NCBI GenBank assembly: GCA_903884375.1
Contig: CAISER010000020.1
Span: 1 to 52,762, forward strand
Length of the DNA stretch: 52,762 bases
Direction: 5' to 3'
Source of the DNA: Candidatus Collierbacteria bacterium
GTDB lineage: Bacteria > Patescibacteriota > Microgenomatia > UBA1400 > MFAQ01
The position numbers and the translations under genes are program-made. The notes beneath the pieces are model-generated. The model was not told where the DNA came from and made no database searches. It saw only the letters and a program-made list of their open reading frames with translations. Below, one piece after another: positions 8,706 to 35,518 of the stretch (position 1 is its first letter; every line of letters begins with the position of its first letter).

Positions 8706-8721
8706 ATTAAATATATTTTTA

Positions 8722-9741: not shown

Positions 9742-9762
9742 TAATTGGTCAGTATTAATTTA

Positions 9763-9792
9763 TTGATGCTATCACAAAATCAAGAGTATAAG
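9763..9792 (+). promoter_or_regulatory. Candidate sigma70-type promoter (TTGATG-N18-TATAAG) for the epimerase/transketolase operon
   Basis: Hexamers at 9763-9768 and 9787-9792 in the 75-nt divergent intergenic region, 24 nt upstream of the ATG at 9817. Weak evidence in AT-rich DNA. Confidence 0.25.
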
Positions 9793-9816
9793 TAGTGATA
9801 AAATCTTAATACAATT

Positions 9817-13304: not shown

Positions 13305-13307
13305 TAT

Positions 13308-14318: not shown

Positions 14319-14341
14319 TATTGGGTATTTTTTTGTATTAA

Positions 14342-15370: not shown

Positions 15371-15373
15371 AAA

Positions 15374-19050: not shown

Positions 19051-20310
19051 TTATACTTGTTTTGGCTTTGAAAGTCTTCTGGAAACATAAATCGAAAGGG
19101 ATAGAAAAAGGAATAGCTGAAGATAGAAATTAGCTTGAACAGTGATGGAAAAAGAATTCTTAGATATATAGAAGACTATCGGTTGGAGAATAGTGGTGAT
19201 GAGCAATAATATGTTTGCTTGAGGACGATTGGTAGCCATTAAATAGGAAATAATGAATAAACTGAAGGCAAAGAAAGCCATGGAAAAAGCAAAATATGCA
19301 AGTAATGGAGATGCTTCAAGGTAGGCCGGACCTGAGAGTAAATTGATGATGAACTTGGGAAACAGACTAAAAATCCCTGCCCCTATCGTACCAAAAAATA
19401 ATATTACCGAACCAAGTTTGAAAAAAATTGAATTTGTTGAGGTATTTTTAGCATGACGATGAGCAGCGATTGGGAGCACTAAGGCGGAGATTGGAGTAAG
19501 CCCGAACAGAATCATTCTCCCGAGAATTGATAGTGCCGAGTAAAGTCCTGAGGTGTGTGAGTCAAAAAAAGCTCGAACCATTAAAACGTCTGTGGAGATT
19601 AACGATGCCACTCCAAGTGCGTAGATAAAACTGTAACCGGTAAAACCTTTCAAATTAAATTTATTTTTCTTACCGGTTTCCATCTTTGGGTAGACATTTT
19701 TTTTGATTGATAGAAATAGCATAATGGAAGTTATCGCTCCGGCAAGAATTTGACCAAGAATGGCTCCCGTGGCACCAAGCCCTAGTTTTATAAACAAAAC
19801 CGCAAGAAGAATCGTCGAAACTGTACCAATAAAACCAACAATCGTCTGGAAGACGAATTTTTGAAAAGCGATGATGTAGGAATTGACAATGGTTTGAAAA
19901 AGAGAAATAAAGACACTAATTCCCAGAACAATAAAGGCTATTGAGTGTGCTTTAAATACAAAAGCCAAGGGGCCGGAAAGAATAATCAAGAGAGTACCAA
20001 GTATTATGACAATTGGAGTAATGAGTTTGAGAAGATAATAAAAGAATTGATTGATTGATTTGTCGTCCCCCTTTCCTTTGTAATCCGAAACAAATTTAGT
20101 GACGACGTTGGCAACAGTTCCCGTGGGAATGGCTAAGAGATTGGTAAGACTGAGATAAGAAAGAAATTCACCATACTGCCCCGGTAATAGGAGTCTTAAA
20201 AGAACCAAATGAAAAATATACCTCGAAAAACTTAGAATAAAGTTCCCGAAATAATAAAAGGCACTAGAACGAGCAGTGGGTGTAGAAAAGGCTCGTAAAA
20301 CTTTCTTCAT
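19051..20310 (-). CDS. MOP-superfamily oligosaccharide/polysaccharide flippase (Wzx-like)
   Basis: 419 aa, about 12 hydrophobic helices. The N-terminal FYYFGNFILSFSRYIFHLVLLRLLLPGQYGEF pattern is typical of polysaccharide biosynthesis (Polysacc_synt) flippases. Confidence 0.7.
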   Translation of the reverse strand: MKKVLRAFSTPTARSSAFYYFGNFILSFSRYIFHLVLLRLLLPGQYGEFLSYLSLTNLLAIPTGTVANVVTKFVSDYKGKGDDKSINQFFYYLLKLITPIVIILGTLLIILSGPLAFVFKAHSIAFIVLGISVFISLFQTIVNSYIIAFQKFVFQTIVGFIGTVSTILLAVLFIKLGLGATGAILGQILAGAITSIMLFLSIKKNVYPKMETGKKNKFNLKGFTGYSFIYALGVASLISTDVLMVRAFFDSHTSGLYSALSILGRMILFGLTPISALVLPIAAHRHAKNTSTNSIFFKLGSVILFFGTIGAGIFSLFPKFIINLLSGPAYLEASPLLAYFAFSMAFFAFSLFIISYLMATNRPQANILLLITTILQPIVFYISKNSFSITVQANFYLQLFLFLSLSIYVSRRLSKPKQV

Positions 20311-20497: not shown

Positions 20498-21526
20498 TCA
20501 AGTTTGTGTTCTTTGAATAACTTGATTATAAATATCTTGCGTTTCTTTGGCTGTTTTAGCCCAAGAAAAGGTGGAGGCTTTCTTTTTGGCTTCGTCAATT
20601 TGAGTTAATTTCGCTTTGGGAGAGAGAGAAAGAGCTTTTTTAATGGCTTTTTCCATTGAAATTAGTTTGTGAGGATTAAAAGTAATGGCATTATCATGAT
20701 AGATTTCCGGAAGACTGCTAGTGTTTGAACTTGCAACTAAACAACCGGAAGTCATGGCTTCAAGAAGAGGTAAACCAAAGCCCTCATAAAAACTAGGCTG
20801 GACATAGAGAGCGGCCAGGTGATAGAGAGCGTTCAATTCATCGTTTTTAACATATCCTGGTAATATTAAGTGTTTGTAGACCCTTAAACGGACCATATCA
20901 ATAAGTTCTGGGTGAACAGGTTCTTTGATTTCTTGAAGCATCCCCTTTCCTACAATAACTAAAGGAATATTTAATCTGTCCGTTACCTCTGCTAGAGTAG
21001 GTAAGTTCTTGTTTGGATTTGGACCTCCAGCTACCGTAAGAATAAATTTATCTGGGAGATGAAACTTCTTTTTGACAGTATTAAGTTTTTTTTCGGCGAC
21101 TTCTTGGCTATAAAGTGAATCAACAGCCAATGGGGTGACAAATATTTTTTCCGGTGAAACACGTAGATATTTTTCAATATCTTTTTTTGAGTTTTCCGAG
21201 TCGGTAATTATTGCCGAAACAGATTGAAGGGCTAACCATTGACGAGCCAAGTTGATGGATCCTATTATCCCTTTTGGATATCTACCCGCCATTACCAATG
21301 GTGTAACATCATGAATGGTGACGATGGTGGATTTTTCTTTTTTCCAAGGGAGAGTGTGGAAGAATAGATCAAAAAACGGATAATGAATAATATCGGGATT
21401 GATATCGGTAAGTAAGATGGCTGATTTATTTTCTAGTGCCTTGGCGAGATTTTCGGCGTAAAAACCAACCCCTCTTCCTTTCGAGTGAGTGCCACTGTCC
21501 AAAAAAACTTTTATTTTATTTTGCAT
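20498..21526 (-). CDS. GT-B fold glycosyltransferase, family 4-like
   Basis: 342 aa. PSFYEGFGLPLLEAMTSGCLVASS carries the E-x7-E motif. Confidence 0.85.
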   Translation of the reverse strand: MQNKIKVFLDSGTHSKGRGVGFYAENLAKALENKSAILLTDINPDIIHYPFFDLFFHTLPWKKEKSTIVTIHDVTPLVMAGRYPKGIIGSINLARQWLALQSVSAIITDSENSKKDIEKYLRVSPEKIFVTPLAVDSLYSQEVAEKKLNTVKKKFHLPDKFILTVAGGPNPNKNLPTLAEVTDRLNIPLVIVGKGMLQEIKEPVHPELIDMVRLRVYKHLILPGYVKNDELNALYHLAALYVQPSFYEGFGLPLLEAMTSGCLVASSNTSSLPEIYHDNAITFNPHKLISMEKAIKKALSLSPKAKLTQIDEAKKKASTFSWAKTAKETQDIYNQVIQRTQT

Positions 21527-22394
21527 ATATTTCGTTTTTGTAAAGTTCCCAGAGTTTCATATAGGAAAAAGCGTGATGAAGCCCTGAATAGAGAGAAAAG
21601 ACAAATCCCGGAAAGCCATCCAAAAAACCCCGGCGGCGAAAATACAAATTTAGGAAAGTACCGGCTGGTTTAAAAAATAGAAACAAAATAGTATTGAGAA
21701 TAGTTATTTTTAGACCGGCTTCTTTGTAGAATTTGGCTTGTAGGCTGGAGTACCGATTTTCTCTTAATAAATAGCGACTGAAATCGGGAGTGGCGAAGTG
21801 GTCAAGATCGGTTTTCAACCAACCTACTGGTCCATCAACTTTCATTTGTTCATGGACATCCTTTGCCGGAAGAATGGCTTTCCCTTTTTGGAAAAGACGG
21901 ATAACAGGATCGGGGTACTGACCGGTATTTTTTAGATAACGATTAAGGAAATAATTTCTTCGCGGTAGCCAATAAGCAGAAGCAGGAGAGTTTAGTTTGC
22001 GTGGTTCGGAGAAGATTTTGATAATTTTGTTAATGGAATGGCGGAAAGGAGATATCCAATTATCATAGCCAAAAGATTCCCCTTCCAAAATTCTAATGAT
22101 TTCCTTTTTCATTTCCGGAAGAACCCTTTCATCGGCATCTAACTGAAGAATCCAGGTGGACTTCGCTTTATTAATCGCTTTATTTTTGGTGATATGAAAG
22201 ACTTGTTCGTGAGGTTCTTTATAAACTATGGCTCCAAGTGATTTAGCAATATCTCTGGTTTTATCGGTGCTTTGTTCGTCGACAACAATTATTTCATCAA
22301 CCCAGTTTTTGACCGACTCGAGACAGTCTTTGATGTTATTTTCTTCGTTGAAAGTGGCCAGTACCACCGAAATTGATTGACGTTTATTTTTCAT
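21516..22394 (-). CDS. GT2 glycosyltransferase (LgtF/WaaE-like subfamily)
   Basis: 292 aa. ISVVLATFNEENNIKDCLESVKNWVDEIIVVDEQSTDKT, LQLDADE (DxD), and a C-terminal amphipathic segment GFPGFVFSLYSGLHHAFSYMKLWE shared with the ORFs at 42922 and 44636. Confidence 0.8.
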   Translation of the reverse strand: MKNKRQSISVVLATFNEENNIKDCLESVKNWVDEIIVVDEQSTDKTRDIAKSLGAIVYKEPHEQVFHITKNKAINKAKSTWILQLDADERVLPEMKKEIIRILEGESFGYDNWISPFRHSINKIIKIFSEPRKLNSPASAYWLPRRNYFLNRYLKNTGQYPDPVIRLFQKGKAILPAKDVHEQMKVDGPVGWLKTDLDHFATPDFSRYLLRENRYSSLQAKFYKEAGLKITILNTILFLFFKPAGTFLNLYFRRRGFLDGFPGFVFSLYSGLHHAFSYMKLWELYKNEIYAK

Positions 22395-24031
22395 TTGGTT
22401 GAGATGAACTTATACATAACTTCACCTGAAAGTGATTTTACCGTGTTTATGATTTTTGTATCGTCCACTTTTTCATCGGCTGACACTATTAGGGCATTGG
22501 GTATATTTTTATCTTGTTCATAATTAATAGCTCGGAATTCGTATTTGTCTAATTTTCTTCCTGTTGAAAAACCATATTTGTCAGGTGAGGACATTACAAT
22601 TTCTTTTTGAAGTTTTTCCGGTGGGTATTTAGTGAAGAAGGCGATCAGAATATATGGCTGATCATAACGGTCGGAAATAATGATGTGGTCATATTTTTCA
22701 TAATTAGCTTTGGTATAGACGGCAATCTGTTCAAAACCATATTGCCAAGCTATCGGAAGCTCTTTGGGGTAGTGGATATAGTACATATGTAGATAGCGGC
22801 CGAAACCGTAGACAGTTCCTAAAATCACAAAGGTGAGTAATGCCGGGAGAAGTTTTTTTGCATATTTTTTGACAAATAAACAAGTTTCAATTAAGCCTAT
22901 GGCAATGATTACCGAAAATGGCACAGACATGTTTTCGGCTCGTAGTGCGTGAGGGGATTGATAGGTAAGGGCAGCCGCAAGTGGAGAGATAAAAAGCCAT
23001 GAAAGAATGGTTTTTTTGCCTGGTGTGTCGAATTTAATGACATAAAGAAATCCTAAGACAAAGAAAGGGAGAAAAAATAGTAGATTCTCCCCCATTTCCG
23101 GAACTCGACTTCTGGGAATGGCATCACCATCAATAAACTGAAAATCAGGAGAAAAATGAGATTGATAATTTTGGACAAAACGCATGGCATAACTTAGAAA
23201 TTTGTTGTGAACTAACTTAACAAATAGACTATCATTTTGGTGTTCAATTCTAAAATTAGTGGATTGCCATGCCGGACCGGGATCAGAAAAAATCGAGACA
23301 CCGGAAAATCTTGACTGACCTTCTTTGCTTAACATCTGGAAAGCAATCGGAAGAGCGAGAACAACGGTAAAGATAATGGCTAAAATGGTTCTTTTAAAAT
23401 TTGATTTTGCAAAAAAACTCTTGATTTCTTTAAAATAAATTATGGAAAATACAAGAATTAAGGCCGGTGTGATGACCCTGGCCGAGTGATATGTATAAAG
23501 AGATAAAACGGCGGATATAACAAAAACAAAAAGATGTTTCGTGTTTTCAAATGATTTATAAAGAAACAGAAGGGCCATAAGAATGAAAAATGTTGCTACG
23601 TTTACTTCCCAACCGCCACGAGAAAACTGAAGATGCCATGGAGAGATGGCCAAAATGAAAGCACTAAGCTCCGGAAGAAATGATTTTCTTTTTTCCGGGA
23701 ATAAATGTTTTACCAGTAAAAATAAAATATAAACACTAATGGTGCCCAATAAAGCCGACGGCAAACGAACAGATGTTACGGATAATCCCATTGCTTTGAC
23801 AAATGGAAGAGCAAGGTAAACATAGAGAGGTGGTTTGTAATCATCAAAAGAACGAAAAACCAAAGGCCAAGAAACCGAGTGTTCGTCTTTGCCGGTTTCG
23901 ATCAAAGACCAAGCATTGTAGCCTAGGGCTGCTTCATCGGCATTAAGACCGGCGGGAAATTTTGATAACATGAAGAGACGAAGAATTCCGGCAAGAAGAA
24001 TGATGGCAATAATGAGTTTATTTCTTTTCAC
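22391..24031 (-). CDS. GT-C glycosyltransferase, ArnT/PMT-like (GT39/GT83-like), tandem paralogue 1 of 6
   Basis: 546 aa. First loop LNADEAALGYNAWSLIETGKDEHSVSWPLVFRSFDDYKPPLYVYL, then SPWHLQFSRGGWEVN and many TM helices. C-terminal soluble domain WQYGFEQ...DQPYILIAFFTKYPPEKLQ. GTGA overlap with the upstream paralogue. Confidence 0.8.
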   Translation of the reverse strand: MKRNKLIIAIILLAGILRLFMLSKFPAGLNADEAALGYNAWSLIETGKDEHSVSWPLVFRSFDDYKPPLYVYLALPFVKAMGLSVTSVRLPSALLGTISVYILFLLVKHLFPEKRKSFLPELSAFILAISPWHLQFSRGGWEVNVATFFILMALLFLYKSFENTKHLFVFVISAVLSLYTYHSARVITPALILVFSIIYFKEIKSFFAKSNFKRTILAIIFTVVLALPIAFQMLSKEGQSRFSGVSIFSDPGPAWQSTNFRIEHQNDSLFVKLVHNKFLSYAMRFVQNYQSHFSPDFQFIDGDAIPRSRVPEMGENLLFFLPFFVLGFLYVIKFDTPGKKTILSWLFISPLAAALTYQSPHALRAENMSVPFSVIIAIGLIETCLFVKKYAKKLLPALLTFVILGTVYGFGRYLHMYYIHYPKELPIAWQYGFEQIAVYTKANYEKYDHIIISDRYDQPYILIAFFTKYPPEKLQKEIVMSSPDKYGFSTGRKLDKYEFRAINYEQDKNIPNALIVSADEKVDDTKIINTVKSLSGEVMYKFISTK

Positions 24032-25674
24032 TTGTTTTTTGTTTTGATGATTCTGAGCATGATTTTTCCATCGGGATAATAAACGTCTTCATGTTTTTCG
24101 ATTGTGGGCAAACTAAAATCGAAGTTATTGTCGATATTGCCGATTGTGCCGACAAAAATAGTATTGTATTGATTACTAACTTCGCTTTTTCCAAACTGGT
24201 GGAACTCAACAATGTCACCGATATGACTTACCATTCCCACATCAAAGCCTCCTGTTTCAAAGGAGTTTTGTTTTTGATATTCAGCCGGATTAAATTGAGA
24301 ATAAAAAAGATAGAATATATATGGCTGTCCCCAAACATCCGTCATGACGACTTTGCTTTCCGGGTATTGATTGATAAACTTCATTGCTTGTTTGTATCCA
24401 TACTGAAATTCTTTGGTGTAGACAAAGTTCCCATGGATAAAAAGAAGATCAGAAAGATAAAAGTATCCGATGATGGTTAGAAAAGAAGAAAAGACAAAAA
24501 TCAATTTTATTTTTTGCCAAGCATAAAACGCTCCACAACCACAAATAATAGCTAAAGGAATTACCATAAATAAACTCCTGACTGTTGAAAATTCGGATAA
24601 AGTTAGAGATCCGGGGAGTGGGGATAGAAGTAGTAAACCAAGAATGAAGATAGATATTTTTGAAGGAAACATTTTTACTAAAAATGCCAAACCTAAAATC
24701 ACCCAGATAAAATCAAAAACCAACAGGACTCCGGAACCAGGAACGTGACCTCTATCGACCGGTGCATACCCTTCATAAAAGAGAAGTTTGGGTGAAAAAT
24801 GTTTGAGGTAACGACTAGCAACCAGCCTGGTTGTCAGCTGTGACTGATTGTGGAAAAGGGAGAGAGTAAATTTGTTGCTATTATCAGTAACAACCGTTTG
24901 TTCCGAAACTCCCGGTTTGTAACCAAAAATACTTAGACGTTTTAAGCGGTTGCCTGTTTCTCCAGTAATAGAACTAATAAATAAATAAAGAACAATACTA
25001 ATGGATAATAATAAAAAGATCAGATTTAATGGTTTTTTGAGATGATGATGTATGTTTGTTTTGATCCCTTGCCAAAAAATTAAGAGTGTAAATATCAGCA
25101 CAACCGGTGTAAGAATCTTGGCTGCTTGGTAAGTTATAAAGGTCAGTAGCCCTAATAAAATAGAAGAATTGAGAAATTTTCCTTCCCTTGCAAATCTTAT
25201 TAAAAAATATATCGAGTATAAAAGTAGAGTGACGAAGACATTGGTTTCCCAAGCTCCTCTTGAAAAATGTATGTGAAGTGGCATTATGGCAAGAAAAAGT
25301 GCAGACAACGAAGCTAAAAAAAGATTCTTCTTTTCGTCCTTAAAAAGTTCTTTGACCAAAAGAAATACACCAAAAATTGCCAACAGACCAAAGATGACAC
25401 TAGGGAAACGTACCGCGAACTCGGTGAGCCCAAAAAGGGCAATCGAAGGAATGGTAAGGTAAATGTATAACCCAGGTTTGTAGTCACCAAAACTTTTGAA
25501 AATTATGGGAAGAAGTTTTCCATATTCGTCTTTGCCGGTTTTAAGAATGGAAAAAGCGTTATACCCAAGAGCGGCTTCGTCCCAAGTAAGTGCACCGGGA
25601 ATTGCACCGAGCTGATATAACCTTAAAAAAGCGCCTAATAGAAGAGCAATAATTAATAACCAGTACTTTTTCAT
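24028..25674 (-). CDS. GT-C glycosyltransferase, ArnT/PMT-like, tandem paralogue 2 of 6
   Basis: 548 aa. LTWDEAALGYNAFSILKTGKDEYGKLLPIIFKSFGDYKPGLYIYL; MPLHIHFSRGAWETN; C-terminal FQYGYKQ...GQPYIFYLFYSQFNPAEYQ. Confidence 0.8.
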   Translation of the reverse strand: MKKYWLLIIALLLGAFLRLYQLGAIPGALTWDEAALGYNAFSILKTGKDEYGKLLPIIFKSFGDYKPGLYIYLTIPSIALFGLTEFAVRFPSVIFGLLAIFGVFLLVKELFKDEKKNLFLASLSALFLAIMPLHIHFSRGAWETNVFVTLLLYSIYFLIRFAREGKFLNSSILLGLLTFITYQAAKILTPVVLIFTLLIFWQGIKTNIHHHLKKPLNLIFLLLSISIVLYLFISSITGETGNRLKRLSIFGYKPGVSEQTVVTDNSNKFTLSLFHNQSQLTTRLVASRYLKHFSPKLLFYEGYAPVDRGHVPGSGVLLVFDFIWVILGLAFLVKMFPSKISIFILGLLLLSPLPGSLTLSEFSTVRSLFMVIPLAIICGCGAFYAWQKIKLIFVFSSFLTIIGYFYLSDLLFIHGNFVYTKEFQYGYKQAMKFINQYPESKVVMTDVWGQPYIFYLFYSQFNPAEYQKQNSFETGGFDVGMVSHIGDIVEFHQFGKSEVSNQYNTIFVGTIGNIDNNFDFSLPTIEKHEDVYYPDGKIMLRIIKTKNK

Positions 25675-27350
25675 TTCATCTTAACTATGGTAAAGGCGGG
25701 ATAACCGTCTAGAAAATTAATTACTTTGATTACTTCGGAGTTTTTAGGTATGTGATTTACGGTAGTTACCAACAAACTATTTTTGGTGTCAATTATTTCT
25801 CCGTGTTCCAGTGTTAGAGTTTTTATTTCGGTATTGGGAGTATCAAATTCATTTACAAAGTAATAGTTATCAATCTTATCCGTCCAGTACCAGCCTGTTT
25901 GGAAAAATCTGGTAGTTATATTTTTGTCTTGGAGAATTTCAGGATTTAATTTGTTGTAAAAAGCATAAAAGATATGAGGTTCACCGTAGCGTTTGGTGAT
26001 AAAAAATTTATCATAATCATTTTGAGTAGAAAGATATTGATATAGTTCCTGATAGCCATACTGCCAGGCTTCTGAGTATGTTTTTGGGTAGGTAACAAAG
26101 AAATCGTTTAAATACAAGCAAAAGTTTAATAGAATCGTGATTACAAAAACAGAAGTGATAATTATTTTTGTTGAGGTAGATATTTTTTCCAAGAGATAAA
26201 GAAGGCCAAGCCCTGAAATTATGACTATTGCTGGAATCATTGGGTTTGGACGTAGGGCTTGAGGAGGATCAACGGTTAGTGCAGCAGCAACCGGAGAAAG
26301 TGCAAACCAAATAAAAATAAATTGGTGAGCTTTATCCTTTGGGTGTCTGACCAAATAAACAAAGCCAATTAGGAATAATAACATTAGCGGTAATCCGATT
26401 AAATTTTTCCCAGGAATAGCGAACTGAGTTTGAGCGCCTAAACTTTGATTGAAAAAACCGGGAGAAAAATAATTAAAATAATTTGCGATTGCTGTTTGAA
26501 TAAAAAACAACGGTCGGTTGTAAACCAGCTTGGCTACCAATGGAGGTAAATTACTTTCTGTCCGTTTTTGACCTAGCGTGTAAGCAGTGGACTCGGTGAT
26601 GATGTTTAATTTCCCATAACGCGCCGTTCCGGCACCTGTAGCCATTTGAAAGGCAACAATACCTCCAAAAAAGATTATTATTAAAAATGAAATTACTGCC
26701 CAACGGGTAATAATTAATTTTTTATAATAGAGTAGAACAAAGGAAATAAGAAGGAGTGGAATAAATACTCTGGCGGTGTTGTATGTGTGCAATGAAAGTC
26801 CAAATAGAATCGCTGCCGGAAGGAAATTTTTTGTCATTTCAATTCCTTTGATTAAAAAATAACCGCCAAAAATAATAAAGGTTAAAGCAAGATTGGCTTC
26901 AAGAGCAGGATGTGAAATAAAAAAATGCCAAGGTAATACGGCAAGGAATATCGAGGAAATAATAGGTAAAGAAAAAGAGAGTTTCTTTATCTGGAGTTTC
27001 TTTTCGGGAAATAGAACGCCAGTGAGAAGAAAAATTCCGGGGATAGCTAAGGTTCCGGCTAAAGCTGAAACAAAACGAATAGCAAAAGTATTGAGGCCAA
27101 AGACGGCTACCGAAATAGAGGTGAGATAGATATAGAGAGGTAATTTAAAATCTCCAAAAGCTCTGAAAATTAAGGGTAGTTTTATCCCCCATTCATCTTT
27201 GCCAGTTGTGAGAATTGAAAAAGCATTATATCCATGACTGACTTCATCCCAGTTTGGTGATACGGGAAATTTATCAAGCATAAAAAATCGAAGAACTCCA
27301 CCTAATAAAGTAATGAGAAATAGAGTAATTATGGTTTTATTTTTGAACAT
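25671..27350 (-). CDS. GT-C glycosyltransferase, ArnT/PMT-like, tandem paralogue 3 of 6
   Basis: 559 aa. PNWDEVSHGYNAFSILTTGKDEWGIKLPLIFRAFGDFKLPLYIYL; LPWHFFISHPALEAN; C-terminal WQYGYQE...GEPHIFYAFYNKLNPEILQ. Confidence 0.8.
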   Translation of the reverse strand: MFKNKTIITLFLITLLGGVLRFFMLDKFPVSPNWDEVSHGYNAFSILTTGKDEWGIKLPLIFRAFGDFKLPLYIYLTSISVAVFGLNTFAIRFVSALAGTLAIPGIFLLTGVLFPEKKLQIKKLSFSLPIISSIFLAVLPWHFFISHPALEANLALTFIIFGGYFLIKGIEMTKNFLPAAILFGLSLHTYNTARVFIPLLLISFVLLYYKKLIITRWAVISFLIIIFFGGIVAFQMATGAGTARYGKLNIITESTAYTLGQKRTESNLPPLVAKLVYNRPLFFIQTAIANYFNYFSPGFFNQSLGAQTQFAIPGKNLIGLPLMLLFLIGFVYLVRHPKDKAHQFIFIWFALSPVAAALTVDPPQALRPNPMIPAIVIISGLGLLYLLEKISTSTKIIITSVFVITILLNFCLYLNDFFVTYPKTYSEAWQYGYQELYQYLSTQNDYDKFFITKRYGEPHIFYAFYNKLNPEILQDKNITTRFFQTGWYWTDKIDNYYFVNEFDTPNTEIKTLTLEHGEIIDTKNSLLVTTVNHIPKNSEVIKVINFLDGYPAFTIVKMK

Positions 27351-29001
27351 AATGAAGTAGGTAAAAGGCTGGAGTCCTATTGGGATAGTTTACTTGATCT
27401 ATGATATTTGGTTTTAAAATATCAGTTAATTTTTCGGCTTTAATAATCACGAGATTCCCTGGGACAAGATCGACTGAAGAATCAAATGACCTAAAAACAT
27501 AATTTTTAAGCGAATAGCTTTCAATCATGTCCAAGAAAAGAAGATTATTATTTTTAATAATCGGCCACCAATTCTCCGAAAAGGTTTGATATTCCACCGG
27601 ATTTATTTTGTTGTAAAAAGCGAAAAAGACTTGAGATTGATTGCCTTTGTCTATAATTACTTTTGAATAATCATTTTGATATTGGTTTATTTTGACGATC
27701 AAATCCCGATACCCTGTGGACATGGCCGATGGATACTTAACCGGCCAGACAAATAAATAATTGTTGAGATAAAAAAGAAAAGAGCCAAAAACAATAAAGG
27801 AAATAAATATCTTTGAAATACTTTTTCTTATAAATGTAAAATTTCCAAGAAGTTCCACGAAACCAAAGGCTGAAATGAGCTCAAAAAGACACATTAGTGA
27901 ACCTGCTCTATTTGGCCGATAGCCTTCTTTGGTGATGGCTGCCGGAATAATGCCAATGAGTAACCAAAGAAGAAATATTAGTGATGTTTTATCTTTTCTT
28001 TTTGCAAGAGAATAGGCACCATAAATTAACATGGGGATCATCCAAAAATATAGAAGGCCTGTCCCGGGAATAATGGCGTAGGAAATTTCTCGACCGCTCT
28101 CGGCAAACCAAAAAGCCGGTGAAAGGTAACTTAAATAATTTTGATAAAAACTGTTTACGGCAAAGGTAAGTTTGTTGTTTAAGATTCGAGTAATTTGAGG
28201 ATTAATTTTATTTAGAGGAGAGAGATATTGGATTGAACTTATCTCCTGTAAATTTTCTTTTGAAAAATTGGTGATGATAAGATCTTTTCCCCTAACGTTT
28301 CCGGGGCCAAAAAATGAGTCGAGATATATTGGAGTACCAAAAAAGGCAAGAACGCAGAGAAAAATACTGATGAATTTGGGCTTGATTTGTTTTAAATGAT
28401 CACGATATACGATAAGGATTCCGAGAATAAATAAGGGAATAAATATTTTGGCTGCCAAATAGCTATATAAATCCAAACCGAAGAATAATGATGACCATAT
28501 TAAATTCCTTGGTTTTGAAAGTCCTTTGATAAAAAACAATAAGCCACCGGTAAAGAAAAATGAGGCGTAGTTGGCCTCAAGTGCCATTCGGGAAAATTGA
28601 AGATGCCATGGAGAAATAGCTAGGAATAATGAGGCAAATATAGCAACTTTTTCTTGTTTGGGAAATAATGCTTTTGCCAGAAAGAACAATAGAATAATGG
28701 CTAAACTGCCAAAAATGGCCGAGGGGAACCTGACCGCAAATTCATTCAAGCCAAAAATGGCAATACTGGGAATCATAAGATATGTCTGAAGTGGGGCGCG
28801 ATAGTCCGCAAAAGCTCTGAAGCTGGTTATCGGCCAAGGAATCCCCCACTCGTCTTTACCTGTTTTAAGTAACGAAAAAGCCGTGTAACCTTGACTGGCT
28901 TCATCAGGAGTAAAACCTGTGGGAGCCGAGCCAAGACAAATAATTCTTAACAATAGACCGACAATGAAAACTATCCCTAGGATAAAAAAGGGTCTTTTCA
29001 T
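27337..29001 (-). CDS. GT-C glycosyltransferase, ArnT/PMT-like, tandem paralogue 4 of 6
   Basis: The ORF track extends to 29097, but that overlaps the upstream gene by 71 nt and adds a non-homologous 32-aa leader. Starting at the internal ATG (complement of 28999-29001) gives MKRPFFILGIVFIVGLLLRI..., colinear with the paralogues. Motifs: FTPDEASQGYTAFSLLKTGKDEWGIPWP...FRAFADYRAPLQTYL; SPWHLQFSRMALEAN. Confidence 0.75.
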   Translation of the reverse strand: MKRPFFILGIVFIVGLLLRIICLGSAPTGFTPDEASQGYTAFSLLKTGKDEWGIPWPITSFRAFADYRAPLQTYLMIPSIAIFGLNEFAVRFPSAIFGSLAIILLFFLAKALFPKQEKVAIFASLFLAISPWHLQFSRMALEANYASFFFTGGLLFFIKGLSKPRNLIWSSLFFGLDLYSYLAAKIFIPLFILGILIVYRDHLKQIKPKFISIFLCVLAFFGTPIYLDSFFGPGNVRGKDLIITNFSKENLQEISSIQYLSPLNKINPQITRILNNKLTFAVNSFYQNYLSYLSPAFWFAESGREISYAIIPGTGLLYFWMIPMLIYGAYSLAKRKDKTSLIFLLWLLIGIIPAAITKEGYRPNRAGSLMCLFELISAFGFVELLGNFTFIRKSISKIFISFIVFGSFLFYLNNYLFVWPVKYPSAMSTGYRDLIVKINQYQNDYSKVIIDKGNQSQVFFAFYNKINPVEYQTFSENWWPIIKNNNLLFLDMIESYSLKNYVFRSFDSSVDLVPGNLVIIKAEKLTDILKPNIIDQVNYPNRTPAFYLLHYVQK

Positions 29002-29026
29002 ATAATCATTATAATTCCTTGATGAG

Positions 29027-30733
29027 CTAACGGAAACTTTTGTTTGTATTAAGGACATAAAAGACAGGGAATAGCGTAGGGAACTTGATTGTTTCATCGA
29101 TTAGATGGCTAAGTTCCCCGGTTTCAAGATATTCATTGTAAGTAACGACATAGACAGCATCTTTAATTTGGAAGGGATTTGGGAGTTTTTTGTCGGTAAT
29201 TGAGGCAAAATAGATGTTTGTCCCAGTAAGTTTTTCACCTTCGATATTTAACTTTTGATCGACTTTCTCAAGAAAAGTATTGGTTTTATAGATTTCCTGA
29301 AATTTTGCAGCCGGAAAATCGGAGTAATATAGATAGAAAATCAAGGGAGGTTCATAGTTTCTGGTGATTATTAAGGGGCGATTGATGTACTTTTTTGTGT
29401 TTTGAATGACTTGTTTTAAACCATAATGCCAGTCCCTTTGCGAGTCATACTGATAATGGTACCAGTAGTCATGAAAATAAAAGAATGACTCAAATAAAAA
29501 GAGTCCTGTCAAAAGAATGGTAAGTATTTTTGATTTATTTTGAAGGTTATAAACACCCGTAGTTATCAACAAAACGAGAGGTAAAATCATCATGTAATTT
29601 CTTGAAGCATGGTTTAGTCCATCTCTCGTCAGAACTGCCGGAGTAGTCGCCGAAAGCCAAAGAATGGCTAAAAATAATAAAAATCTATTATGTTTCCCCG
29701 AAATAATAAAATAAATTCCCAAGAGGAGCGGAATCATCAAACTTTTTTCCAACATCCCCCAGTTTTTTAGAGCATGACGTTGATTTGGATCACCAGACAA
29801 AAACAAGAATCCTGATGAAGCGGGGTTAATAAAATTGGTGGTGATGAAATTTGTGAGACTGATTAACTTGTTGTGAACAATTTTGCTATTTAACCCCGGA
29901 ACCGAACCGACAGTAGCGTTTGGACCAAGATCAATTTCTCGTTTGGCATTTATTTCGGTTGGAATTGTAGGGTCGGTAAAGATCGTTATTTCTCCAAAAC
30001 GTTTTCCGGCTCCCCCATTTAGAAGAAGAATGAACAAGGGAATAAAAAGAATCGATAAGATAATCCAATTTATTTTATTTTTTAAGTATTCAAAACCTCC
30101 CGGTATTAGAGAGATAATCAAGGGATAAAAAATGACCGACAGTTTGGCTGTGCTGTAAACCATGGGAACAAGGGACAACAAAATAAGACCAATGATTAAG
30201 TAGCTTTTTTTATTGCCAATTAGAAATTTTGTATAGAAAAATAGTCCTGCAATCACAAAGAATAAGAGCATTGAAAGTTCAAATCCTGCGCGGGAGTAAG
30301 TATAGTGCCATGGAAGAAGAGAGAGAACCAACGAAGACCAAATCCCCGGAAATATTTTTGATTTATTATTTATCAAACCAAAAAGAGTAAATAGATTATT
30401 TACCAAAAAGAATATTAAAATTATCGAAAGAACCGAGAAAATAGCTGGAGTTAATCGGATTGCCGTGTCGATTGATATTTTTGGAAGGAGGGAGATGAGA
30501 GCTGTCGAGTAAATTGGTAGTGAAGTACGGACATCACTGAAAGAGTGAAATTGAAGGGGAAGAAAATTTCCTTGATAATCTTTTCCTGTAGAAAGAAACG
30601 ACTTGACTTGATAACCGATGTCAACTTCATCAGCGAAAAGACTTGGAGGATTAAAATCAAGTTTGTATAAACGTAAAAAACCTGCCAGGAATATTATAAC
30701 TACCAAGGCAATGATTGATAAATTCTTATGCAT
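29027..30733 (-). CDS. GT-C glycosyltransferase, ArnT/PMT-like, tandem paralogue 5 of 6 (divergent subgroup)
   Basis: 568 aa. LFADEVDIGYQVKSFLSTGKDYQGNFLPLQFHSFSDVRTSLPIY; LPWHYTYSRAGFELS; C-terminal WHYGLKQ...EPPLIFYLYYSDFPAAKFQ. Confidence 0.75.
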   Translation of the reverse strand: MHKNLSIIALVVIIFLAGFLRLYKLDFNPPSLFADEVDIGYQVKSFLSTGKDYQGNFLPLQFHSFSDVRTSLPIYSTALISLLPKISIDTAIRLTPAIFSVLSIILIFFLVNNLFTLFGLINNKSKIFPGIWSSLVLSLLPWHYTYSRAGFELSMLLFFVIAGLFFYTKFLIGNKKSYLIIGLILLSLVPMVYSTAKLSVIFYPLIISLIPGGFEYLKNKINWIILSILFIPLFILLLNGGAGKRFGEITIFTDPTIPTEINAKREIDLGPNATVGSVPGLNSKIVHNKLISLTNFITTNFINPASSGFLFLSGDPNQRHALKNWGMLEKSLMIPLLLGIYFIISGKHNRFLLFLAILWLSATTPAVLTRDGLNHASRNYMMILPLVLLITTGVYNLQNKSKILTILLTGLFLFESFFYFHDYWYHYQYDSQRDWHYGLKQVIQNTKKYINRPLIITRNYEPPLIFYLYYSDFPAAKFQEIYKTNTFLEKVDQKLNIEGEKLTGTNIYFASITDKKLPNPFQIKDAVYVVTYNEYLETGELSHLIDETIKFPTLFPVFYVLNTNKSFR

Positions 30734-30737
30734 ACCC

Positions 30738-32375
30738 TTACAGTTTTATGATGGTGAATAAAGGTTTGCCTAAAATATCTTTGGTGAAGCCAACAGTCTT
30801 AAACATGGATGGTGGATCTTTGGACCAATCCCAGTCCCCTGGAATTTCTTTCATTTGCGCTGCCAGATAAATATCTCCAGGCTGAAGTAGTTTTTGCAAA
30901 TCATCCAAATTACCTGCTTGGCCAAAATAGTAATTATCTCCAAAACGGAAACCCGTAAAGTATTTTCCTTTGTATGATTCCTGATTATCTCCCTGGAAAT
31001 CTTTTTGAAATTTTGCTGGAGGGTACTTTGTGTAAAAAGCAAACCTTAGTAGAGATGGTTTGTAAGTGTTATTAATATATATATTTTTGGCATTTGCCAA
31101 TTGTGGTTTTAGTTGAGTAAAAATACTCTCATAGCCAAAGTCCCAAAATTGAGCCGAGTCGTATTTGTAGTGAATGGAATATTGATGAAAATAATTGGCG
31201 AAAGAGAATAAAAATAACGAGCCAATTATAGAGATGAATATTTTTTTAAATTTAATTTTGGAAATTAATTCCCCAAAACCAAGTCCGGTGATTATTACTA
31301 GTGGAGGTACCATAAGGAAAAGTCTGGTAGCATGATCTCCCCCACCCTGAGTAAGACTTGAGGGAAAAGGTGAAAGAAACATCCAGAGAATTATTAATTT
31401 ATTATGTTTTTCTGAAATATTTTTTAGTAGAGTAAATAAACCTAGTAAAAAGAAGGGGAGGAAAATCCAGAGCAGTTCACCTTGTTCACTTATTGAGTGA
31501 CGGAAAAAGGGGTCACCTTTGAGAAAAAGAAACTGAGGAGAAAGAGCGGTAATATAGTTTGAACCAATAGCTGTAGCGAAGGCTGCATATTTGTTATGAA
31601 AGACTGTTTCTATTAGTGAAGCTTTTATCCAGGGATCTGTTCTTTTGATTATTAGCTCATCTATAATCTTTTGATCGCTGAAAACACTGATAAGACCAAA
31701 GCGATTGGCTGCTTGGCCAAACAAAACGTTATAGACCATGGGTAAAACAATCAAGGTAGGAATAATCAATCTAGCCCAGTTCTTTTTTAGATTAAGCGCG
31801 GGACGGTAAATTAGAAGAAGCCCAATTATAAATAAGGGGGTAAAGACGTTGGCGGTTGAGTAGGTATAAAAAGTGAGAATAAAGGGAATGAGGCATGTAA
31901 AATATTTCTGTTTGACAAAAAGATAGGTTCCCAAAAGGAGGAAAAAAGTGAGAGGAACAACTTCGAATGAAGCTCTGGAGTAATGAATATGCCAAGGAGT
32001 GATGGCTAAGACAAACGCTGACAGAAGCGCTAAGGTATTGTTTTTGGAGAAGAGTTTGACCAGAAGGAAAAGAAGATAGACGGAGGCAACACCAAGAAGA
32101 GCGACCGGAAGTCTAACGGCAAAGGTGGTTGGACCGAGAATCCCAACAAAAGGGGCTGTGAGATACATAAGAAGTGGTGCTCTCCACTCCGATAGACTAT
32201 GAATATACGAAGGAAGAAAATTGCCCATGTAGTCTTTGCCGGTAGTTATTAGAGACCAAGCATGGTAACCAACATCGACTTCATCACCAAAAAGAGATAT
32301 CGGTAAAAAGTTCAGATTGACTAAACGGAAAAAAGCCGCGATTGATAAGATACCGATAAAAATAATATTGATCAT
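30738..32375 (-). CDS. GT-C glycosyltransferase, ArnT/PMT-like, tandem paralogue 6 of 6 (divergent subgroup)
   Basis: 545 aa. LFGDEVDVGYHAWSLITTGKDYMGNFLPSYIHSLSEWRAPLLMYL; TPWHIHYSRASFEVV; C-terminal WDFGYES...YKPSLLRFAFYTKYPPAKFQ. Confidence 0.75.
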   Translation of the reverse strand: MINIIFIGILSIAAFFRLVNLNFLPISLFGDEVDVGYHAWSLITTGKDYMGNFLPSYIHSLSEWRAPLLMYLTAPFVGILGPTTFAVRLPVALLGVASVYLLFLLVKLFSKNNTLALLSAFVLAITPWHIHYSRASFEVVPLTFFLLLGTYLFVKQKYFTCLIPFILTFYTYSTANVFTPLFIIGLLLIYRPALNLKKNWARLIIPTLIVLPMVYNVLFGQAANRFGLISVFSDQKIIDELIIKRTDPWIKASLIETVFHNKYAAFATAIGSNYITALSPQFLFLKGDPFFRHSISEQGELLWIFLPFFLLGLFTLLKNISEKHNKLIILWMFLSPFPSSLTQGGGDHATRLFLMVPPLVIITGLGFGELISKIKFKKIFISIIGSLFLFSFANYFHQYSIHYKYDSAQFWDFGYESIFTQLKPQLANAKNIYINNTYKPSLLRFAFYTKYPPAKFQKDFQGDNQESYKGKYFTGFRFGDNYYFGQAGNLDDLQKLLQPGDIYLAAQMKEIPGDWDWSKDPPSMFKTVGFTKDILGKPLFTIIKL

Positions 32376-33517
32376 ATAAAAGGAAGTCTTAGACTCCAGT
32401 ATAGGTTATACATATGATAAGACGATAACAAAAGAAAATCTAATAGGTATCTCGAAAAAATTCCTGGGGTAAGTAAACAAAACATAATAGCGGGGGCAAG
32501 ATGACGTTCGTGAACACGGGTTTGAATAAAGAAAACTAAAAGGGACCAGATAAAGAGATAATTGAGAAGGCGAATGATGGAAAAATTTTTATGTAGTTTT
32601 ATTAACAGATAAGCCAAGGAGATAAGGAGAATAAAAATTGATATTGATCTAACCGATAGAGGTCCAAATAATATGGTGTCTTCGGTACCGATGGGAAAAA
32701 TAAAATGCCAGATATTCCAAGCGGCGTCACTTACCAAGTTAGAAGAACCGGAAAGCGTTTGAAAATATATCCTTATTGCCGAACCCGGGCCAAGTCTAAT
32801 AAGAAGGAATGAGGTAAAAAAAGTTGCCAGTGAAAGAATAATTCCCTTAAAAAGTTCATCTTTATTCATTTGTTTTAACCAAAGAATTAAATAGAGGGGG
32901 GCAAACCAGAGAGTTGTTTGTTTGGTAAGTACACCAAGAGCAAATATAAAAATTGAAAGTAGCCGATACGGAGAGTAAATAGCGATATAAAGTGACCAAA
33001 CAAGAAAAAGATTGGTCAAAGGCTCAATTTGGCCCCAGACAGATGAGATATAAATAACGGCCGGATTGAAAAGATAAAGAGCGGACAACAACAAAGGTTT
33101 TATTGATTGTCGTTTTTCGAGGAATTTGAAAATTAATATAAAGGTAAAAATATCTGCTAGAATCCCCGGAAATTTGAGAAAGGCATAACGCATATTTTCA
33201 CTAATAAATAGAGGAACCAAAAATGATGGAAATATGTCAATTGATTTATTTAGAAAAAGAATTAGTCCGGTAATTGCCTGATGAAAAAGATTGGCGACAG
33301 AAAAAAATATGATGGCTAACGGAGGGTAATTTGGGTCATTGAATCCCGGAAAATGGCGAGAATAAAAACCAACCGGATCGTTAAGGAGACCATTCCCCCA
33401 AGCAAAATGGTTTTTGATATCTCCTGAGTATTGAAAATAAGCAATAGCTAATCTAATAATTAATCCCAATACCAAAACTAGCCAAAAAATACGTTTATTT
33501 TTGTCTGTTTTCGCCAT
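32372..33517 (-). CDS. Small polytopic GT-C-like glycosyltransferase with an ALG6/ALG8-like (GT57-like) first-loop motif
   Basis: 381 aa, all-helical membrane protein. The first loop YSGDIKNHFAWGNGLL...FYSRHFPGFNDPNYPPLAIIFF resembles my memory of the ALG6/ALG8 signature (GD-x4-R/H-x-W ... DYPPL). From memory, not searched. Confidence 0.45.
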   Translation of the reverse strand: MAKTDKNKRIFWLVLVLGLIIRLAIAYFQYSGDIKNHFAWGNGLLNDPVGFYSRHFPGFNDPNYPPLAIIFFSVANLFHQAITGLILFLNKSIDIFPSFLVPLFISENMRYAFLKFPGILADIFTFILIFKFLEKRQSIKPLLLSALYLFNPAVIYISSVWGQIEPLTNLFLVWSLYIAIYSPYRLLSIFIFALGVLTKQTTLWFAPLYLILWLKQMNKDELFKGIILSLATFFTSFLLIRLGPGSAIRIYFQTLSGSSNLVSDAAWNIWHFIFPIGTEDTILFGPLSVRSISIFILLISLAYLLIKLHKNFSIIRLLNYLFIWSLLVFFIQTRVHERHLAPAIMFCLLTPGIFSRYLLDFLLLSSYHMYNLYWSLRLPFI

Positions 33518-34712
33518 AAAGAAGTGATATTAGTGAGGCAAGAATACCGGCTCGTGCGAAAAGTACCAGATTCGAGTTTTGCAGAGGATTGTAGGTGGTG
33601 GGGGTAAAAACATTTTTGAAAGAGAGAAACATTCCAAGACTTTGGGACGGATCAAAAGAAACCCAGATTATCGCCCAAAAACAAATGAGCGTTATCCATA
33701 AATAATGTCTTCCGGTGGAAATTGAAAAATATAATAACCAAGGCATTAACCAGAGAAACCATTGAGGATGAAAATGATTAAAAGCTAGGGTTGAAAGAAT
33801 GGTAAGCCCGATTGATTTGATAAGACTTAGTTTGCCACGATATAAAAGAAGAGAAATAAAGATATAAGCAACATAAAGCCAAGGAATGGAGGTTCCCGGA
33901 GAGATAGCAATACCAGCATAAGTTGATTTCTCCGTCAGAGAAGCAAGAAGGGCATACATTTTGAATGAGGGTGAACTAAGATAGGGAATAATAAAAGCCA
34001 ACCAAACAGCAATTCCGGGAACTAGAGCAAGAATTGCTTTTTTAATACCATCTTTTTTAAAGGAATTAATGGCCATTAAGGGTAATAGTGCTAAACCAAA
34101 TGGCTTAATTAAAGCCGAAAGAGCAATGAAGACAGAGGCCTTGGAGTATGATTTCTTTTTAAGATAGATTAAGGCTATCAATAGAAAAAAGGTCAGCATG
34201 GTGTCCACCTGACCAACACCGGCAGCGACATGAATTGTGACCGGAGCAAACAACCAAATGAGCTGGGCTAGACGACCATTTTCTTTACTCGAAAATAGTT
34301 TGGGAAGAAAAATTAAAGTAAGAAAACCAAAGATAAGGAAAGGAAGTTTAAAAACAAATAAAGGAAAGAAAGTTTTGTAACCTTGAAATAGAGCATTATC
34401 ATCCAAGGTTATAATATCAACTGCTTTATTTAGTATTCCGGAGAAGGGAATATGAACAATTGAAGGAATTAAATAGGCAAGTGGGGGGTAAATAAAAATA
34501 TCGTCTCCGTAAATCTTTTTGACCAGATCATTTTGAGGAAGTTTTGAAACATGATCATAAAATGTTAGGACTTCTCCACTACTGATAAATTTTGAGGCTA
34601 AAACAAAGGCTCGAAGATCCGGATGATAGGTGGTGATGGAGATAAAAAATTGAATTAAGATACCAAGAATGATTAAGGGAAAAAAGAATTTGGTGGTTAT
34701 TTTTTTGACCAT
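33495..34712 (-). CDS. Small polytopic GT-C-like glycosyltransferase (DUF2029/GT87-like)
   Basis: 405 aa. HPDLRAFVLASKFISSGEVLTFYDH...IYGDDIFIYPPLAYLIPS, then about 10 TM helices. An acidic residue in loop 1 plus an aromatic-YPPL motif is the pattern I associate with DUF2029-type polyprenyl-phosphate-sugar-dependent transferases. Confidence 0.45.
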   Translation of the reverse strand: MVKKITTKFFFPLIILGILIQFFISITTYHPDLRAFVLASKFISSGEVLTFYDHVSKLPQNDLVKKIYGDDIFIYPPLAYLIPSIVHIPFSGILNKAVDIITLDDNALFQGYKTFFPLFVFKLPFLIFGFLTLIFLPKLFSSKENGRLAQLIWLFAPVTIHVAAGVGQVDTMLTFFLLIALIYLKKKSYSKASVFIALSALIKPFGLALLPLMAINSFKKDGIKKAILALVPGIAVWLAFIIPYLSSPSFKMYALLASLTEKSTYAGIAISPGTSIPWLYVAYIFISLLLYRGKLSLIKSIGLTILSTLAFNHFHPQWFLWLMPWLLYFSISTGRHYLWITLICFWAIIWVSFDPSQSLGMFLSFKNVFTPTTYNPLQNSNLVLFARAGILASLISLLYGENRQK

Positions 34713-35518
34713 GTTAATTTTTTAATTATTTTTTGCCATTTTTGGCCAATCCATAAAACAATATTTAGAACATCCGAACCAAATTTCCCATGATAAATTT
34801 CTGCCGACTTGGCTAACGGGCTGGAGAGATGTGAAGAAAAATTGCCACTGGCACCATGGGTATGCATGACTTGGGCTTTGGGATAGTAATAGACGGGAAG
34901 ATTAAATTTGTGCAAACGGCGACAGTATTCAACATCTTCATAGTATAAAAAGAAACGCTCATCTAATCCGCCGACTTGATTTATCGTCGCTTTAGGAATC
35001 AGGAAGGCTGCCATGACAGCGACATCGACTTTGGTGGTTTTGTTTCCTGGGAAATATTTATTGAAACAGTTTTTGCAGTTGAAAAAATAATATTTTATGG
35101 CATTTCCAATAGTGGGAAACTTGTAGCACGAAGGCTGGATTTTGCCATCATTGTAAAGAAGTTTGGGTGCGACGGCTCCAAGAACCGGATGTTCTTCGGC
35201 AAAATCAAATAATAGTTTTAGGGCGTTGCCCATAATTCGAGTATCGGGATTAATTTGTAAAACATATTTTCCATGAGATTCTCTGATTGCCCAGTTGACT
35301 GCTTTGGACAAACCAACATTTTCGGTGTTAACAAGTACTTTTGGTTTTAATGGATGTTTCTTTGCCAGTTCGACACACTTATCTCCGGGGTAGTTGTCAA
35401 CAACGATAATTTCTTTTTCGAGACCATCTTTGGATTTTTGAATGGAGTTTAGAAACGGAACAATGGTGTCTTCGGATTTATAGCCAACAACGATTATAGA
35501 TAAATCGATATTTTTCAT
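34697..35518 (-). CDS. GT2 glycosyltransferase (COG1216/rhamnosyltransferase-like subfamily)
   Basis: 273 aa. LSIIVVGYKSEDTIVPFLNSI, IIVVDNYPGD, LQINPDTRI, FLYYEDVEYCRRL. Confidence 0.8.
   Translation of the reverse strand: MKNIDLSIIVVGYKSEDTIVPFLNSIQKSKDGLEKEIIVVDNYPGDKCVELAKKHPLKPKVLVNTENVGLSKAVNWAIRESHGKYVLQINPDTRIMGNALKLLFDFAEEHPVLGAVAPKLLYNDGKIQPSCYKFPTIGNAIKYYFFNCKNCFNKYFPGNKTTKVDVAVMAAFLIPKATINQVGGLDERFFLYYEDVEYCRRLHKFNLPVYYYPKAQVMHTHGASGNFSSHLSSPLAKSAEIYHGKFGSDVLNIVLWIGQKWQKIIKKLTWSKK

Follow-up and report, generated by a model that had tools for sequence, protein, structure and literature searches.

What does a bacterium from the candidate phyla radiation (CPR) do with six adjacent genes for membrane glycosyltransferases of one kind? 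CPR bacteria have tiny genomes from which most biosynthetic pathways are absent, and yet the stretch of Candidatus Collierbacteria DNA studied here (52,762 nucleotides (nt), assembly GCA_903884375.1, contig CAISER010000020.1, positions 1–52762; hereafter the window) devotes almost all of its 52.8 kb to glycan synthesis. On its minus strand, at 22391–32375, stands an array of six paralogous GT-C genes, which we name G6 (first gene) to G1 (last gene), and five to seven such genes recur in fixed order across Collierbacteria, Woesebacteria and their relatives. An original prediction, made from the sequence alone, had described the six as tandem ArnT/PMT-like paralogues. From their fold, residue conservation, orthology and manner of divergence, we lean towards the view that they encode non-redundant catalytic steps of an operon-encoded line for the extracytoplasmic assembly or decoration of a glycan in this Microgenomates-group (CPR) bacterium.

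The six proteins and their fold

From first to last, the minus-strand array comprises G6 (30738–32375, 545 amino acids (aa)), G5 (29027–30733, 568 aa), G4 (27337–29001, 554 aa), G3 (25671–27350, 559 aa), G2 (24028–25674, 548 aa) and G1 (22391–24031, 546 aa, with a GTG start). Coordinates, lengths and junctions proved to be as predicted when checked against the list of open reading frames (ORFs) and re-read from the sequence. The junctions G3/G2 and G2/G1 are 4-nt ATGA/GTGA overlaps, G1 overlaps the gene that follows it by another 4 nt, G4/G3 overlap by 14 nt, and gaps of 4 and 25 nt separate G6/G5 and G5/G4. An in-frame ATG further upstream of G4 would extend its ORF to 29097, adding 32 residues and a 71-nt overlap with the end of G5; the start at 29001 is nevertheless the likely one, since the orthologues are 554 aa long. 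A plus-strand ORF antisense to G2 (24091–24480, 129 aa) is most likely a chance ORF in AT-rich sequence.

All six copies align over their full length with 25–34% pairwise identity, and the BLASTP scores between them (210–266 bits) are far beyond chance. At the DNA level no long repeats were found across the array, the best being a 77-nt stretch of 61–70% identity over the region coding for DE-TGKD. Since each copy moreover has its own orthologues (see below), an assembly artefact or recent duplication is ruled out, and the predicted origin by old duplications stands. Promoter-like sites (50 found, 59 expected) and terminator-like sites (20 found, 15 expected) were not above the level of shuffled sequence, and the scan gave no internal operon boundaries.

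Pfam returned PMT_2 and/or PMT matches in five of the six copies, counting G3, whose PMT_2 match is sub-threshold (22.6 bits, cut-off 26.1 bits). Above the gathering threshold were PMT_2 (PF13231) in G1 (34.2 bits), G2 (40.5 bits) and G4 (49.9 bits), and PMT (PF02366) in G2 (28.8 bits), G4 (26.7 bits) and G6 (26.5 bits, with PMT_2 at 24.5 bits). G5, the most divergent and variably present paralogue, has no Pfam match, yet over its full length it can be aligned with the other five, and it contains all of their invariant residues. A profile built from the six copies gives G3, itself among them, a score of 768 bits. At E ≤ 1e-30 the same profile retrieves 6,249 cluster representatives (50% identity), a large family none of whose members has a known function; individual orthologues are annotated by NCBI and other public pipelines as 'glycosyltransferase family 39 protein' or 'ArnT-like'. 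The label 'Bathyarchaeia archaeon' on a further member of the family, HUW22051.1, is probably wrong.

The NCBIfam matches were weak and below threshold. The ArnT equivalog NF009784 gave 16.9 bits for G2 and 23.8 bits for G4 (cut-off 567), the bacterial Pmt equivalog NF058602 gave 17.7 bits for G4 only (cut-off 800), and TIGR03663, for Agl23-type archaeal proteins, gave 30–37 bits (cut-off 126), indicating that the six copies are orthologous to none of ArnT, Pmt and Agl23. Pfam likewise found no MIR domain, no PMT_4TMC and no STT3 in any of the six. The description as ArnT/PMT-like is therefore sound as to the GT-C fold and the PMT_2/PMT similarity; it fails as a statement of orthology, the NCBIfam scores for these two enzymes being 17–24 bits.

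We modelled G4, the copy chosen for this purpose, with AlphaFold2 from 28 orthologues (pLDDT 88.4, pTM 0.88) and compared the model with the PDB using Foldseek. The top matches were all GT-C enzymes (AglB, PglB, STT3, ArnT and Pmt4; probability 1.00, E = 5e-10 to 3e-06), and ALG12/ALG9, AftD and Pmt1–Pmt2 were also among the matches. The best E-values were those of AglB, PglB and STT3, and the best TM-scores those of ArnT (0.55/0.56). ArnT (5ezm) was also the sole solved relative detected by sequence, when a profile of G4 orthologues was run against PDB sequences (E = 0.0023); the profile of the six copies found nothing there at E ≤ 1, and G2 alone nothing at E ≤ 10. By extrapolation from the ArnT alignment (offset +20), D33 of G4 would fall near residue 53 of the 5ezm chain. 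Each of the six is a GT-C class A membrane glycosyltransferase, with the fold read from the G4 model.

About 11 membrane helices can be counted in the G4 model, fewer than in ArnT, and its N-terminus lies inside. Lysine and arginine number 8 in the short inside loops versus 3 in the short outside loops, which places D33 and E34, directly after helix 1, in the extracytoplasmic space together with the large helix 7–8 loop and a C-terminal domain of ∼130 aa. This agrees with the predicted location of the Asp-Glu motif in the first extracytoplasmic loop. The further claim that the motif is the catalytic signature of family GT39 does not hold, since GT-C enzymes in general have an Asp-Glu behind their first membrane helix. 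It is also reported in PMTs, and an acidic motif follows the first helix of ArnT. The helix 7–8 outer loop of the model includes a disordered stretch, as does its counterpart in other class A GT-C enzymes.

Conservation, orthology and divergence of the copies

Alignment of the six proteins identified D32, E33, G37, Y38, T46, G47, K48, D49, P131, H133, S137 and E142 as invariant, together with G432 and Q475 of the C-terminal domain. These positions bear out the motifs of the original prediction, except that the W of W.YG is missing in G2 and G4. The division into two subgroups (G1–G4, with TGKDE, and G5 and G6, with TGKDY) is real. Among 101 distinct homologues, each of D33, E34, D50, R91, R138, E142, Y181, R237 and R365 (numbered as in G4) is found in at least 97, and D33 and E34 are present in 100. 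Degenerate copies, which would have undermined the prediction, were looked for and none was found: the conserved residues are intact in all copies, which rules out pseudoenzymes among them. The six have in common an N-terminal putative catalytic module made up of Asp-Glu, a T-G-K/R-D loop, R....E in the second outer loop and conserved Tyr/Arg residues.

We compared identity within orthologue groups with identity between paralogues, region by region in G4 numbering. For helix 1 and the first outer loop (1–86) the fractions were 0.635 within and 0.42 between (ratio 1.51), for helices 2–7 (87–231) 0.454 and 0.326 (ratio 1.39), and for helices 8–11 (321–424) 0.396 and 0.253 (ratio 1.56). The ratio rose to 1.96 in the large outer loop (232–320; 0.48 within, 0.245 between) and to 2.1 in the C-terminal domain (425–554; 0.415 within, 0.198 between). 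Sequences of the large outer loop and of the C-terminal outer domain are thus particular to each orthologue group, and group-specific signatures also adjoin the conserved motifs, including loop residues near the putative active site. Differences between the copies had been ascribed to their C-terminal domains; that domain is indeed divergent, but the helix 7–8 loop and residues near the active-site loops are group-specific as well. This region-wise pattern is the one expected for a single donor chemistry combined with a separate acceptor for each paralogue.

Modelled alone, the C-terminal domain reached a pLDDT of 92.8. It had no Pfam match and no significant PDB fold match (best Foldseek E = 0.65), so that its assignment as a known carbohydrate-binding module or as an oligosaccharyltransferase (OST)-like domain is unsupported. 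In the first part of this domain (27600–27735 in G4, with the equivalent in each copy), a few residues past the last membrane helix, is a W-x-Y-G-(Y/F) motif, the site of which reads W-Q-Y-G, F-x-Y-G or x-s-y-G depending on the orthologue group (x-s-y-G in the G4 group), with Gly alone conserved. Its position recalls that of the WWDYG motif of the OST family.

To follow the array beyond the window, one genome per species was scanned and every homologue in the resulting 24 loci was classified against the six window copies. Loci whose titles name a candidate phylum all belong to Collierbacteria, Woesebacteria, Microgenomates or Patescibacteria, and the closest G4 homologue (77% identity) is encoded on a 704-kb contig in a metagenome-assembled genome (MAG) of the Microgenomates group. 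Phylogeny with homologues, proposed at the outset as a check, took the form of a neighbour-joining tree containing 101 distinct sequences, and each of the six copies has its own monophyletic clade there (12 sequences for G1, 15 for G2, 18 for G3 and 18 for G6). Moreover, the order G6-(G5)-G4-G3-G2-G1 recurs down to orthologue identities of 34–43%.

Array size varies among related genomes, as had been suspected, with 4 to 7 copies per array. G5 was seen in only 4 distinct related loci and is probably a later duplicate of G6, because in the most distant loci (L024 and L025; the L numbers are ours) the first gene is equally close to both. Members outside the six groups occur in L006 (5013–6692), L009 (1660–3330), L015 (3479–5158), L025 (12302–13921) and L026 (20–1714); they represent a seventh type or types, inserted at differing array positions. 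L023 has two tandem G6-like copies. Genes resembling U405 and U381, the two upstream neighbours described below, also occur inside arrays: a U405-like gene lies between G4 and G3 in L014, L024 and L025 have a U381-like gene between G6 and G4, and L026 has one upstream of G4. Several of the MAG records with a CPR-type array (L006, L009, L010, L014, L016, L020–L023, L027 and L028) are titled 'uncultured Pseudomonadales' or 'uncultured Gammaproteobacteria', labels that are probably wrong.

The conserved block and the rest of the window

Rather than standing by itself, the array is part of a larger conserved operon. It forms the middle of a twelve-gene chain, running from 36387 to 20498, in which every junction is 25 nt or less, and the block GT2-GT2-(U405)-U381-array-GT2-GT4-flippase-PpgS-like GT2 is syntenic in many related loci. 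Two minus-strand GT2 genes with overlapping junctions head the chain (35515–36387 and 34697–35518; Pfam Glycos_transf_2) and stand upstream of the array in many loci. They are followed by U405 (33495–34712, minus strand), a polytopic protein with a weak, sub-cut-off Pfam GT87 match (21.9 bits) that is present in many, not all, related loci, and by U381 (32372–33517, minus strand), also polytopic and itself without a Pfam match, which is coupled to G6 through a 4-nt overlap of the U381 stop with the G6 start and lies just upstream of G6 in most loci. U405 and U381 are distant paralogues (BLASTP E = 7e-08). Some U381 homologues match GT87, Alg6_Alg8 or PIG-U, and JGI calls some of them 'Gpi18-like mannosyltransferase'; these matches to GT87, ALG6/ALG8 and PIG models suggest that U381 and U405 are probably GT-C enzymes of another class.

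Directly after G1, and coupled to the end of the array, is a GT2 gene (21516–22394, minus strand; Pfam Glycos_transf_2), followed by a GT4 gene (20498–21526, minus strand; Pfam Glycos_transf_1); both are kept in most loci long enough to show the region. The best solved relatives of this GT2 are the protein glycosyltransferases GmaR and SunS, a weak match over the N-terminal 110 residues only, which hints weakly at a protein acceptor somewhere in the pathway. Beyond a 187-nt gap lie, on the minus strand, a MOP-type flippase-like protein (19051–20310; weak, sub-cut-off Polysacc_synt match) and an ArnC/GtrB/PpgS-like GT2 (18218–19039) that is a candidate polyprenyl-phosphate sugar synthase. The best NCBIfam match of the latter is PpgS, with ArnC and AglJ weaker, its best PDB sequence matches are ArnC (E = 3e-06) and GtrB (E ∼8e-05), and a hydropathy scan found no membrane helix in it. 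This pair follows the array in L011, L021, L022 and L024, so that candidates for a three-component set of synthase, flippase and GT-C are syntenic in the window and in these four loci, with synthase and flippase called from weak matches. Three larger GT2 proteins (8722–9741, 14342–15370 and 17215–18225) were considered as a possible donor synthase with membrane helices and rejected, as they look like ordinary polysaccharide GT2 enzymes.

On the assembly-line model, all six paralogues would draw their sugar from a polyprenyl-phosphate-linked donor, for which the ArnC/GtrB/PpgS-like GT2 of the same conserved block is the candidate synthase, and the neighbouring flippase-like protein would carry lipid intermediates outward. 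Each paralogue would then serve its own acceptor position, or form a linkage of its own, on a single growing glycoconjugate. The flanking GT2 and GT4 enzymes would synthesise the base of this conjugate in the cytoplasm, and U381 and U405 may also extend the conjugate. A lipid-linked glycan, a wall polymer and a surface protein (S-layer protein or pilin) are candidates for the final acceptor. Physical association of the enzymes would be possible, and the model does not require it.

The window is nearly all one glycan-synthesis island, with all but ∼5 real genes on the minus strand and a plus-strand GC skew that is positive almost throughout; unusual strand asymmetry has been reported in a Microgenomates genome, and the same study counted 29 glycosyltransferases in such a genome (PMC7143001). 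Our tally for the window is ten GT2, four GT4, two MOP/Wzx-type flippases and at least 13 GT-C-like polytopic proteins. Four further PMT_2-type GT-Cs lie outside the array (4676–6877, 38650–40230, 40281–41840 (sub-cut-off) and 50201–51916) and are too distant to be found by the six-copy profile at E ≤ 1e-05; the 733-aa PMT_2 protein has ∼360 additional N-terminal residues with further membrane helices. Three very large polytopic proteins had no significant Pfam matches (45555–48752, 1065 aa; 1590–3773, 727 aa; 36423–38693, 756 aa). The first of these begins with ∼490 residues almost devoid of hydrophobic segments, followed by a membrane domain, and the last, encoded on the plus strand, has an orthologue with a weak YfhO match. 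Beyond the conserved block the window also encodes a YfhO-like protein, more GT2 and GT4 genes and a Wzx-type flippase. No tRNA or Rfam matches and no lipid A pathway were seen in it.

Positions 8046–16930 form a sugar-modification block. It contains a split transketolase pair (10658–11368 and 11353–11868, plus strand), an epimerase/dehydratase (9817–10683, plus strand), GFO- and DAO-type oxidoreductases, S-adenosylmethionine (SAM) methyltransferases and a B12-binding radical SAM enzyme (15374–16930), a content that suggests an unusual branched or methylated sugar. A plus-strand ORF here (9266–9766, 166 aa), antisense within the GT2 gene at 8722–9741, is most likely a chance ORF in AT-rich sequence, too.

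Competing readings

Several observations weigh against a glycan assembly line. PMT and PMT_2 are the sole profile families matched, and those bacterial GT39 enzymes that have been characterised are O-glycosyltransferases acting on proteins (PMC6151902). The top Foldseek matches are OSTs, which use pyrophosphate-linked donors, and the C-terminal domain has no known carbohydrate-binding fold. The donor-synthase call is weak (50 bits against a cut-off of 370, PDB E = 3e-06), co-transcription of the array is predicted only from gene spacing, and the evidence as a whole accommodates a protein acceptor as well as a glycan one.

It is conceivable, if doubtful, that the paralogues are instead parallel protein O-glycosyltransferases, each of which starts glycosylation on its own class of protein, secreted or on the surface (pilins or S-layer proteins, for instance). 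Pfam PMT is above cut-off in G2, G4 and G6, the structural likeness extends to Pmt4 and Pmt1–Pmt2, bacterial GT39 enzymes have proteins as substrates (PMC6151902), protein substrates could be read by the outer loop and the C-terminal domain, both of them group-specific, and the adjacent GT2 resembles GmaR and SunS. However, the bacterial Pmt equivalog gives only a negligible score (17.7 versus 800 bits) and a MIR domain is absent; the GT2/GT4, flippase-like and GT87/ALG6-like surroundings are typical of polymer assembly, and strict collinearity of five to six orthologue groups is unexpected for enzymes that act independently. An obligate hetero-oligomer, whose paralogues would function solely within a multi-subunit assembly in the membrane comparable to Pmt1–Pmt2 or EmbA–EmbB, possibly with a division of labour between subunits, appears rather improbable to us. 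Overlapping start and stop codons and a deeply conserved order are typical for genes of interacting proteins, and GT-C dimers are known, both EmbA–EmbB (PMC7341804) and the Pmt1–Pmt2 and Pmt4 dimer entries in our Foldseek results. A fixed stoichiometric machine is nonetheless argued against by copy numbers of 4–7, by the frequent lack of G5 and by the variable insertion of extra copies or of U381/U405, and the full set of putative catalytic residues in every copy speaks against a purely structural subunit among them. This reading is in any case compatible with the assembly-line model rather than exclusive of it.

The best Foldseek E-values, obtained with AglB, PglB and STT3, raise the question of whether the enzymes move preassembled glycans from pyrophosphate-linked carriers onto proteins or wall polymers en bloc, in the manner of an OST or a ligase. 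W-x-Y-G just past the last helix recalls WWDYG in its position, a weak STT3 match is precomputed for one G2 orthologue, and MOP-type flippases lie nearby. We regard this as very unlikely, because Pfam finds STT3 in none of the six, Gly is the only conserved residue at a site that does not conform to WWDYG, the C-terminal domain taken alone has no match among OST domains, ArnT gives higher TM-scores, and six serial en bloc transferases have no obvious rationale. Just as hard to credit are modules of surface variation, that is, interchangeable side-branch transferases like those of serotype-converting Gtr systems, redundant or fast-diversifying and kept against phage. CPR bacteria are under phage pressure and G5 and the seventh copy type do differ between genomes, and GT-C enzymes mediate seroconversion in enterobacteria (PMC11127046); but G1–G4 and G6 are stable one-to-one orthologues whose order is conserved across deep divergence, the opposite of rapid turnover.

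The conservation of the array points to an important, uncharacterised envelope structure, which would be built largely outside the membrane from lipid-linked sugars. If the six enzymes do act in series, the array would offer a compact and tractable model of acceptor divergence among GT-Cs at constant donor chemistry, and a route to the surface chemistry of episymbiotic bacteria. If they are ordinary redundant transferases, it is merely a notable expansion of a gene family.

Comparison with known systems

Full-text literature searches for this array, and for GT39 or GT83 in CPR bacteria, turned up no account of the array. The original prediction had named no characterised bacterial system with such an arrangement; tandem GT-C paralogues are in fact known from the mycobacterial emb operon (PMC7341804), albeit as three genes of a different GT-C family, and this operon is the closest bacterial precedent. 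EmbC, EmbA and EmbB (CAZy GT53) are, like the array proteins, homologous GT-Cs encoded in one operon; they act outside the membrane and use a polyprenyl-phosphate sugar donor, as we propose for the array. Their identity to one another is 40–46%, their acceptors are specialised, and EmbA and EmbB form a dimer (PMC7341804). They differ from the array in number (three genes versus five to seven), in GT-C family, in size (∼1,100 aa) and in having carbohydrate-binding modules, whereas the array proteins are ∼550 aa long and PMT_2/ArnT-like, have a small C-terminal domain without a fold match and come from a CPR host.

ArnT, the lipid A aminoarabinose transferase (CAZy GT83), gave the best TM-score and the sole PDB sequence match, and it shares with the array proteins a similar size and a C-terminal outer domain; it is, however, a single-copy enzyme without an array, and its equivalog scores the array proteins at 17–24 bits against 567. 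GT39 (yeast Pmt1–Pmt2 and Pmt4, actinobacterial Pmt and the Caldicellulosiruptor bescii GT39) is linked to the array by Pfam PMT in three copies and by the Foldseek matches to Pmt4 and Pmt1–Pmt2; the array proteins lack MIR and PMT_4TMC and have a soluble C-terminal domain instead.

Three-component systems (GtrA/GtrB/Gtr*, CsbB/YfhO and GT136) consist of a GT2 polyprenyl-phosphate sugar synthase, a flippase and a GT-C (PMC11127046, PMC8035078), and the conserved block has candidates for all three parts. In those systems a lone GT-C attaches one side-branch sugar, whereas the array combines five to seven GT-Cs of class A with two GT-C-like proteins. The logic that we propose for the array is shared by ALG3, ALG9 and ALG12 (with ALG6, ALG8 and ALG10) of the eukaryotic endoplasmic reticulum (ER) lumen, of which ALG12 and ALG9 are among the Foldseek matches: these GT-Cs use one lipid-phosphate sugar donor, and each adds one defined residue to a lipid-linked glycan (PMC13503287). 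The ALG genes are dispersed, eukaryotic and of other GT-C families, in contrast to a bacterial operon of close paralogues. A bolder version of the proposal, which we put forward as speculation with little expectation that it holds in full, is that six to eight chained GT-Cs constitute a Microgenomates-specific membrane line that builds a defined heteroglycan residue by residue outside the cell, an operon-encoded counterpart of the ER-lumen ALG pathway, and that the product is the main surface polymer for host attachment or phage resistance of these ultra-small bacteria with their minimal metabolism.

In conclusion, the array is a real, conserved and uncharacterised feature that yields a concrete, testable proposal on CPR surface chemistry. 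It belongs to a well-known superfamily, and it differs from the known systems in family, number, operon organisation and host lineage.

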